A DNA stretch of 64,000 nt, from the NCBI GenBank assembly GCA_947625055.1, contig CANQMT010000009.1, positions 12,750-76,749 on the forward strand, read 5' to 3'. Source of the stretch: an uncultured Monoglobus sp. (GTDB taxonomy: Bacteria > Bacillota > Clostridia > Monoglobales > Monoglobaceae). The position numbers and the translations under genes were made by a program. Numbering within the stretch: position 1 is the first letter of the stretch; each line of letters opens with the position of its first letter. The notes beneath the pieces are model-generated. The model ran no database searches, was not told the origin of the DNA, and saw only the letters and a program-made list of their open reading frames with translations. Below, one piece after another: positions 12,612 to 45,124 of this stretch.

Positions 12612-12706
12612 TTCGGTTTTTTGAAAAAATGAAAAATGTTTAAAATTTTTCAAAAATTTTTTAAAAAAGGCTTGCATTTTATATAATTATAATATATAAT
12701 ATAAAT

Positions 12707-12855
12707 AATCCTTGCGGAAGGATCAATTTCCGCATCTCCGCTTAGCAGCGCGCGAGGCGGAGAGTTGAGTTTTGTTAATTGCTTTACAGCAATTAAAGTT
12801 TTTCATATAATCCATTCACCTAAGAAAGTAGCGGCGCTTCGGCGCCGCTATTTTC
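12707..12855 (+). ncRNA. Candidate small RNA A (stand-alone, structured, anti-SD/anti-AUG motif)
   Basis: TTGCAT (12672-77)-17-TATAAT (12695-700). Hairpins TGCGGAA/TTCCGCA, TCTCCGC/GCGGAGA and TTAATTGCT/AGCAATTAA. Terminator TAGCGGCGC-TTCG-GCGCCGCTA-TTTT (12829-54). No plus-strand ORF. Confidence 0.7.
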
Positions 12856-44758: not shown

Positions 44759-44999
44759 CCGTATTCCTCCTTGTATTTTATATGGTTTCCCCATTGTTTT
44801 CTTATACAAAAAAATATTTCCGCCTTTATTTCCCCGGAGTTTTATTTCGCCGTGTTTCGGCAAAATGCGCTAATCCGCGCTGCAATCGTAATGATATGGA
44901 TTTTGTTGTTGAAAACGCACAAAAAACATTGATATTATTTGCACAATATCAACAAAGTTTTCTATTGAAATATTTTCGGAAATGTTGTATTATATATGC

Positions 45000-45092
45000 A
45001 TACCACAACTAAACAATCTTTTTTTCATTTCCTTCTGCCCGTAAGGGCAGAACACTCCCGACCGAGGTAGCAATATCTCGGTCTTTCTTTTT
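45000..45092 (+). ncRNA. Candidate small RNA B (anti-SD/anti-AUG motif, two GNRA hairpins)
   Basis: TTGAAA (44965-70)-17-TATTAT (44988-93). TTCTGCCC-GTAA-GGGCAGAA hairpin. Terminator GACCGAGGTA-GCAA-TATCTCGGTC-TTTCTTTTT. Confidence 0.62.
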
Positions 45093-45097
45093 GTTTC

Positions 45098-45124
45098 ACA
45101 AAACGCGAACGCCCTCATAGTATA
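45098..45124 (+). promoter_or_regulatory. Candidate sigma-K promoter of dpaAB
   Basis: AC, 16 nt, CATAGTATA matches the AC-N16-CATANNNTA consensus. spoVF is sigma-K-dependent in Bacillus subtilis. Confidence 0.5.

Follow-up and report, generated by a model that had tools for sequence, protein, structure and literature searches.

A gene for a probable trans-encoded small RNA between spoIIAA and dpaA in an uncultured Monoglobus species

The analyzed window, a stretch of 64,000 nucleotides of genomic DNA from an uncultured Monoglobus sp., contains a spacer of 383 bp between spoIIAA and dpaA. The features of this spacer and the flanking genes are summarized in Table 1. A promoter of the sigma-A type is followed by a small RNA (sRNA) composed of an unpaired 5' region, a first hairpin (P1), a short linker and an intrinsic terminator (P2). 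We infer that the transcript starts at A45000, which is 7 nt after the -10 box, and ends within the T tract, which runs to about 45096. The leader of 33 nt is unpaired and contains CUUUUUUUCAUUUCC; no G residue was found in the first 37 nt of the sRNA, which were predicted to be mostly unpaired. The reverse complement of this 5' region is GGAAAUGAAAAAAAGAUUGUUUAGUUGUGGUAU. The CU-rich bases resembling an anti-Shine-Dalgarno sequence sit in the 5' arm of P1.

Table 1. Features of the spoIIAA-dpaA region, with positions in the window
Feature	Position	Strand	Basis or remark
spoIIAA	44453-44758	minus	STAS domain
Palindrome site 1, TTGTTGAAAACGCACAA; consensus TTGTG-N7-CACAA	44906-44922		-94 to -78, centred about 86 bp upstream of the start
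Palindrome site 2, TTGCACAATATCAACAA; degenerate copy 33 bp downstream of site 1	44939-44955		Alignment of upstream regions
Sigma-A-type promoter; -35 TTGAAA (44965-44970), 17-bp spacer, -10 TATTAT (44988-44993)	44965-44993	plus	Consensus scan; 10/12 consensus matches
sRNA (putative), about 94-97 nt	45000-45096	plus	Covariance models R1 and R2 match the full length, once per genome; fold z
G-free unpaired 5' region, presumed seed, AUACCACAACUAAACAAUCUUUUUUUCAUUUCC	45000-45032	plus	16-sequence alignment; 32/33 positions invariant
Motif CTTTTTTTCATTTCCTTCT	45018-45036	plus	Read from the sequence
Hairpin P1, 8 bp, TTCTGCCC-GTAA-GGGCAGAA (RNA: UUCUGCCC-GUAA-GGGCAGAA)	45033-45052	plus	Covariation
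Linker CACUCCC, second CU-rich stretch	45053-45059	plus	ACUCCC invariant in near genera
Intrinsic terminator P2, GACCGAGGTA-GCAA-TATCTCGGTC, 10-bp stem (45060-45083), then UUUCUUUUUGUUU	45060-45096	plus	Terminator scan
Sigma-K-type promoter of dpaAB, AC-N16-CATAgtaTA	45098-45124	plus	Read from the sequence; next transcription unit, outside the sRNA
dpaA	45141-46034	plus	DpaA_N domain

The predicted fold of the plus strand (-30.8 kcal/mol) was far more stable than those of shuffled sequences (-12.8 ± 2.6 kcal/mol; z = -6.84), and none of 200 shuffles was as good, whereas the z value of the minus strand was only -3.15, with loss of the part of the stem that contains a G-U pair. This pair in the terminator stem (45067/45076) would be a C-A mismatch on the opposite strand. 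The first-pass annotation of this region had placed the promoter, the motif, the hairpin and the terminator with its U tract at these positions and had read them as a stand-alone RNA of the plus strand with its own promoter and terminator, in agreement with our results. It had also argued for this strand from the G-U pair and from loops that are of the GNRA type only on the plus strand; the G-U pair was verified, but the GNRA loops were found only in the closest species and give no argument for function. The terminator separates the sRNA, as had been proposed, from the promoter upstream of dpaA, which we take to match the sigma-K consensus of B. subtilis; its CATAnnnTA element is kept in the relatives that retain dpaA at the sRNA. 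From these sequence features, together with the comparative data below, the spoIIAA-dpaA gap very probably holds a real, free-standing and sigma-A-transcribed gene for an sRNA of approximately 95 nt.

To analyze its distribution, we compared 141 bases of the region with the related genomes using BLAST, and the sRNA unit was recovered from the majority of the genomes of the genus and from many of the family's other genera. Scanning species-representative genomes with a pattern yielded 24 records, from Ructibacterium gallinarum DSM 107454, Candidatus Roslinia caecavium and uncultured MAGs labelled Monoglobus, Oscillospiraceae or Clostridiales (sources: rabbit, chicken and human gut). With a covariance model based on 16 sequences, we matched 64 of the 121 genomes of the family, distributed over 11 of its 14 genera, with one match per genome (NCBI labels Monoglobus, Ructibacterium and Ca. 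Roslinia), and also one genome of another family in the same order. With a second, broader model, the sRNA was found in 31 of the 399 sampled genomes of Clostridia; among these were weaker relatives in six genomes of one other family and in one genome each of several further families (E < 1e-4). The covariance model detected neither a repeat nor a second copy within any genome. All relatives of the sRNA, including those from other families, retain both promoter hexamers at the same spacing, and the U tract is present in every member.

The first-pass annotation had suggested a covariation analysis in relatives as a check. Using an alignment of 50 sequences, we found compensatory changes on both sides in all 17 modelled stem pairs, and 91.9% of the cells were paired, compared with 27-45% when the 3' partners were slid; the observed values were reached in none of 500 column shuffles. 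Note that fitting this alignment to the model biases it towards the structure; the raw sequences show the same pattern, however, as hairpin P1 is wholly different between genera and yet always pairs. In P1, all eight pairs showed changes on both sides and 88.5% of the cells were paired, while the loop varied in sequence and length; in P2, the corresponding values were nine of the nine modelled pairs and 94.9%. The 33 nt at the 5' end were near-invariant, whereas the identity of DpaA within the genus is only 65-84%. The core AUACCA…ACAAxC-U6-7-CAUUU(U)CC is shared with members from other families, in which it runs on as the canonical anti-Shine-Dalgarno sequence CCCUCC. The linker ACUCCC was lost in the more distant members, indicating that the family can do without this stretch. 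Judged by these comparisons, the occurrence of the unit is far beyond chance, because all of it is conserved in dozens of genomes and both stems show compensatory changes.

The conservation extends upstream of the promoter. Palindrome site 1 was found at -94 or -93 in all 27 distinct loci of the family, with zero to three mismatches, and at -93 (-91 in one case), with at most one mismatch, in six of the seven members from other families. Site 2 was found at -61 to -45 in 26 of the 27 distinct loci, with one to three mismatches to the consensus of site 1, and the extended dyad has the consensus TTGTGCAAATTGCACAA. Because the position of the dyad is fixed across loci and families, the sRNA is probably under the control of a conserved dimeric transcription factor which binds TTGTG-N7-CACAA. 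The dyad is, by our reckoning, 1 bp shorter than a Rex operator, and we consider it a misfit to the CRP/FNR, TnrA, cre and NrdR boxes; its N7 spacing, in our view, resembles the boxes of LysR-type regulators. In a weight matrix search, the best other copy in this genome (G000:C6:59769-59785) was located 180 bp upstream of gap, the gene for glyceraldehyde-3-phosphate dehydrogenase, and exact palindromes, searched for in 11 other genomes, did not point to a coherent regulon. Further dyad copies in this genome precede genes of 251, 689 and 216 amino acid residues. Two other elements were observed in the same region, namely a second promoter-like site (TTGAAA-18-TATTAT with TG, 44909-44938), which overlaps site 1, and an inverted repeat of 8 bp (TTGATATT…AATATCAA, 44929-44952), which overlaps site 2; the extra TTGAAA box and the left arm of the repeat are not kept across the genus.

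The 5' region has the properties of a conserved and accessible seed of a trans-encoded sRNA, that is, it is near-invariant and mostly unpaired in the predicted fold. As the first-pass annotation had recognized, the exposed run of U residues with CAU and the adjoining CU-rich segment are the mirror image of a translation start. This is most evident in the distant members, which read CAUUUUCCCUCC, the exact complement of GGAGGGAAAAUG; the reverse complement of the seed in other families is AAAGGAGGGAAAAUGAAAAAAGUUUGU…, in which a Shine-Dalgarno sequence, a short spacer, AUG, Lys codons and U-rich codons can be recognized. Such an order is typical of the beginning of a signal peptide. The complements of the Shine-Dalgarno sequence and AUG are only 2-4 nt apart in the sRNA, and therefore real mRNAs must bulge their spacer. 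We consider it about an even chance that the sRNA pairs in trans, independently of Hfq, with the mRNAs of exported and cell-surface proteins at their translation-initiation regions. In such a mechanism, the G-free 5' region would pair without Hfq at these initiation regions, the segment UUUUUUUCAU would cover AUG and the Lys-rich codons which open signal peptides, the adjoining CU-rich bases would reach the Shine-Dalgarno sequence, and the pairing would change ribosome access or mRNA stability. Transcription of the sRNA itself would be controlled by the dimeric regulator at the upstream palindrome. Hfq was absent from the genome, which is 99% complete, also in a tblastn search, so any pairing of the sRNA would be Hfq-independent, as is usual in Firmicutes; CsrA was not found by tblastn either.

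We then predicted the pairing partners, another check which the first-pass annotation had suggested, by calculating the duplex energies between nt 1-37 of the sRNA and the initiation regions (-45 to +30) of 1914 crudely called genes. With gene calls and a signal-peptide test that are both crude home-made heuristics, 27 of the 50 best partners had signal-peptide-like N termini, compared with a genome average of 18%, and 38 shuffled seeds gave 9.5 ± 2.3 (maximum 14) such genes among their top 50. In contrast to this enrichment of the class, the energies themselves were not better than those of shuffled seeds (best value -28.8 versus -25.4 ± 2.1), and the number of partners at or below -20 (41 versus 22 ± 12.5) did not differ significantly. 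The enrichment was carried almost wholly by CUUUUUUUCAU (24 of 50), and the invariant first 19 nt added no target specificity. Nearly all of the best predicted partners were exported proteins, among them two PL11 rhamnogalacturonan lyases encoded in tandem, a Cu_amine_oxidN1-domain lipoprotein, BspA-type LRR proteins and a dockerin protein, as well as surface proteins of very large size and a lipoprotein that probably binds solutes.

The longest continuous complements to the seed were found at the starts of the tandem proteins of the PL11 locus (C5:50551 and C5:53881). These two large exported proteins (G000:C5:50551-53710 and C5:53881 onward), the first of which is a PL11 rhamnogalacturonan lyase, both start with ATGAAAAAAAGATT(G/A)T. 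In two relatives (G004 and G005), the paired starts are again present at a distance of about 3.2 kb, and single matches were found in other genomes of the genus. We considered the 16-nt start-codon matches at the orthologous locus as a proof of targeting and rejected them, because they are also present in two genomes in which the model finds no sRNA; the matches are thus due to descent. A search for near-perfect antisense targets in the own genome (blastn-short and an ungapped scan) gave none, and a 24-nt pattern with up to three mismatches matched only the sRNA genes themselves in 10 distant genomes. Taking the scans of the own genome, the genus and the 10 distant genomes together, no single conserved target was found.

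The pairing model leaves the invariance of the first 19 nt, unusually long for a seed, unaccounted for, and for this reason the main rival is an RNA that binds or titrates a protein, in which the G-free stretch with its CA-rich, U-rich and CU-rich parts would dock an RNA-binding protein, the ribosome or an RNase rather than pair with mRNAs. The approximately 33 nt which are invariant across genera exceed typical seeds, their first 19 nt contribute nothing to target choice, the pairing energies do not surpass those of shuffles and no extended target emerged, all of which speaks for such a decoy. On the other hand, no candidate protein is known, Hfq is absent and CsrA was not found by tblastn, the RNA lacks repeated binding motifs such as those of CsrB or 6S RNA, and the exact mirror of SD-AUG-AAA-AAA in the distant members would be unneeded for a protein site. 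Weighing these points, we regard the decoy role as rather unlikely, and we retain pairing at initiation regions as the working model.

The direction of the effect has also to be considered. Pairing over the Shine-Dalgarno sequence and AUG normally blocks initiation, as with RoxS, LhrC and similar sRNAs, and repression by occlusion would be the default expectation for the present sRNA. The other possibility is that pairing stabilizes or activates the mRNAs of surface proteins, as reported for sRNA 84 of Enterococcus, whose deletion lowers many transcripts and proteins of the cell wall and surface (PMC12642391). The two RNAs have a common layout and similar 5' sequences, but homology between them was not shown by our searches (see below), and an activating effect would depart from the usual outcome of pairing over a start site. 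We consider activation improbable to a degree similar to that of the decoy role, and continue with repression as the expected sign.

A trans-acting RNA is also in line with the gene neighbourhood. The first-pass annotation had noted the placement between two sporulation operons and had linked the sRNA to sporulation. The identities of the two genes were verified (a STAS domain protein and DpaA), but the arrangement is not conserved: spoIIAA is the upstream neighbour in only three loci, namely those of the window's genome and its two closest relatives, and dpaA follows the sRNA in 10 of the 20 loci within the genus. Elsewhere in the genus, the sRNA is preceded by a small conserved ORF and followed by a convergent radC-like gene. 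We observed that the ORF preceding the sRNA in most of these genomes (L004-L006 and L009-L014) is on the same strand and encodes 127-160 amino acid residues (…IEITLPPPVPGEDQSLYAPIL…). In the Ructibacterium-like genomes the sRNA comes directly after tyrS, and in the Roslinia-like genomes it lies between divergent phosphoglycerate-mutase-like (apgM-like) and convergent malQ-like genes, where the names tyrS, radC-like, apgM-like and malQ-like are our reading of N-terminal sequences. Moreover, dpaA and spoIIAA ranked only 1149 and 319 of the 1914 genes as predicted partners, so that neither is a predicted target. Since the neighbouring genes differ between genera, the sRNA does not belong to dpaA as a leader or to the sporulation operons, and the link to sporulation was not upheld. 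The promoter and terminator persist when the flanking genes change, as expected for an independent unit encoding a trans-acting sRNA.

The same data make it highly improbable that the element acts in cis, as a leader or attenuator of dpaAB, or has some other sporulation-linked role in the spoIIA-dpaA spacer, a reading already largely refuted by the varying context. The sRNA does lie 45 nt upstream of dpaA, and the order is kept in half of the loci of the genus; nevertheless, a conserved sigma-K-type promoter that belongs to dpaA lies beyond the terminator, other genera have the sRNA after tyrS or facing convergent genes, and dpaA ranks low as a predicted pairing partner. For the unstructured 5' region, no alternative pairing as an anti-terminator was predicted, and a riboswitch or attenuator is likewise disfavoured, as the gene downstream varies and is often convergent. 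Finally, a minus-strand gene for a small protein or a type I toxin (SD-like AGAAGGA, then ATG AAA AAA…), to which the plus-strand RNA would be the antisense, can hardly be correct: although the minus strand reads AGAAGGAAATGAAAAAAAGATTG… in a frame of 12 codons here and GGAGGGAAAATG… in distant members, the frame ranges from 5 to 60 codons with unrelated, unconserved sequences, is broken by indels (the 6-U variants), runs into the conserved plus-strand promoter and has no conserved minus-strand promoter, while in every member the terminator with its U tract is oriented to the plus strand.

Another putative sRNA of the same window, sRNA A (12672-12855), has an exposed UUUUUCAU followed by a CU-containing stretch, as in the sRNA at 45000-45096, and the first-pass annotation had assigned the two to one functional class. 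This assignment stands for the type of predicted partner, since 22 of the 50 best partners of sRNA A were signal-peptide genes (27 for the present sRNA), and both lists were enriched about 2.5- to 3-fold. It does not hold for descent or individual targets: neither sequence nor structure homology was found between the two RNAs (one model match per genome), and the lists share two of 50 genes, which is the chance level.

We also compared the sRNA with known RNA families. No Rfam family reached its gathering score in the window. The best match was Ref84 (RF02846), which aligned over the full length with 29.4 bits (E = 0.1; threshold 52) and gave 33.7 bits on one distant member. In whole-genome searches, this model matched the sRNA locus in only three of 39 related genomes (24-34 bits), and in the reverse comparison with nhmmer our family profile scored the Ref84 consensus at 7.5 bits, versus 6.2 for the best of 500 shuffles. 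With scores below 52 bits and matches in so few genomes, we rejected a membership in RF02846. Separately, the best sub-threshold matches of the Ref84 model (30-36 bits) were located at other loci in four close relatives (G015:C3:82201-82294, G005:C3:33033-33129, G004:C3:18090-18159 and G014:C68:7383-7452), which may represent a further small RNA with a similar layout. The LhrC model (RF00616, threshold 110) did not match the window and gave 31-33 bits with mispaired stems for two distant members, and no Rfam match to RoxS/RsaE or FsrA was found in the window. Our search found no literature on sRNAs of Monoglobus.

LhrC of Listeria uses several CU-rich (UCCC) stretches to pair with the Shine-Dalgarno regions of cell-envelope mRNAs (lapB, oppA and tcsA). 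It carries these bases in hairpin loops, occurs in several paralogous copies and lacks the complement of the start codon formed by a U run and CAU, whereas the present sRNA has one copy and its seed is the 5' single strand. RoxS/RsaE and FsrA of Bacillus and Staphylococcus, which are controlled by transcription factors, occlude ribosome-binding sites with C-rich motifs; they differ in having CCCC seeds in loops, metabolic and redox or iron targets, and no complement of the start codon and Lys codons. A further system is Enterococcus sRNA 84. According to a 2025 preprint (PMC12642391), this RNA is trans-encoded, its single-stranded 5' end is highly conserved, it has two stem-loops and a poly-U tail, and normal levels of the WxL, LPXTG and mucin-binding surface proteins depend on it. 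It has about 87 nt, the 5' end UACCAACAACAACCUUUUUAUUUUUCAUUU… and ACUCC between the stem-loops. The present sRNA agrees with this layout in its conserved single-stranded 5' end, two stem-loops and poly-U tail as well as in being intergenic and trans-encoded, and the probable class of its targets, cell-surface proteins, is the same. In contrast, sRNA 84 has been reported only in Enterococcaceae and acts as an activator. We conclude that sRNA 84, LhrC and RoxS/RsaE are probably functional analogues of this sRNA rather than its relatives. Judged from the sequence comparisons, the sRNA appears to be a new, well-delimited family, absent from Rfam. The type of RNA is familiar, its distribution is unusually wide and its promoter module is conserved.

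Knowledge of post-transcriptional control is minimal for the fibre-degrading Clostridia of the gut that are uncultured or have hardly been cultured. The sRNA is well defined by comparison, with a promoter, a regulator site, a seed, covarying stems and a terminator, its candidate target class of exported and surface proteins includes pectin lyases and dockerin proteins, and it is present in at least two genera with cultured members (Monoglobus and Ructibacterium). We tentatively propose, as a broader and rather speculative picture, an ancient single-copy sRNA regulon across Clostridia, in which the 5' end, as the antisense of a consensus secretory start (SD-AUG-Lys-Lys-hydrophobic), would globally restrain the secretome and surface proteome, and with them the enzymes by which Monoglobus degrades pectin, under a regulator acting at TTGTG-N7-CACAA; the RNA might even share ancestry with Enterococcus sRNA 84. 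If confirmed, the sRNA would be a new Rfam family and would extend to Clostridia the CU-rich sRNAs of Firmicutes that govern the cell envelope, as exemplified by Listeria LhrC and Enterococcus sRNA 84.
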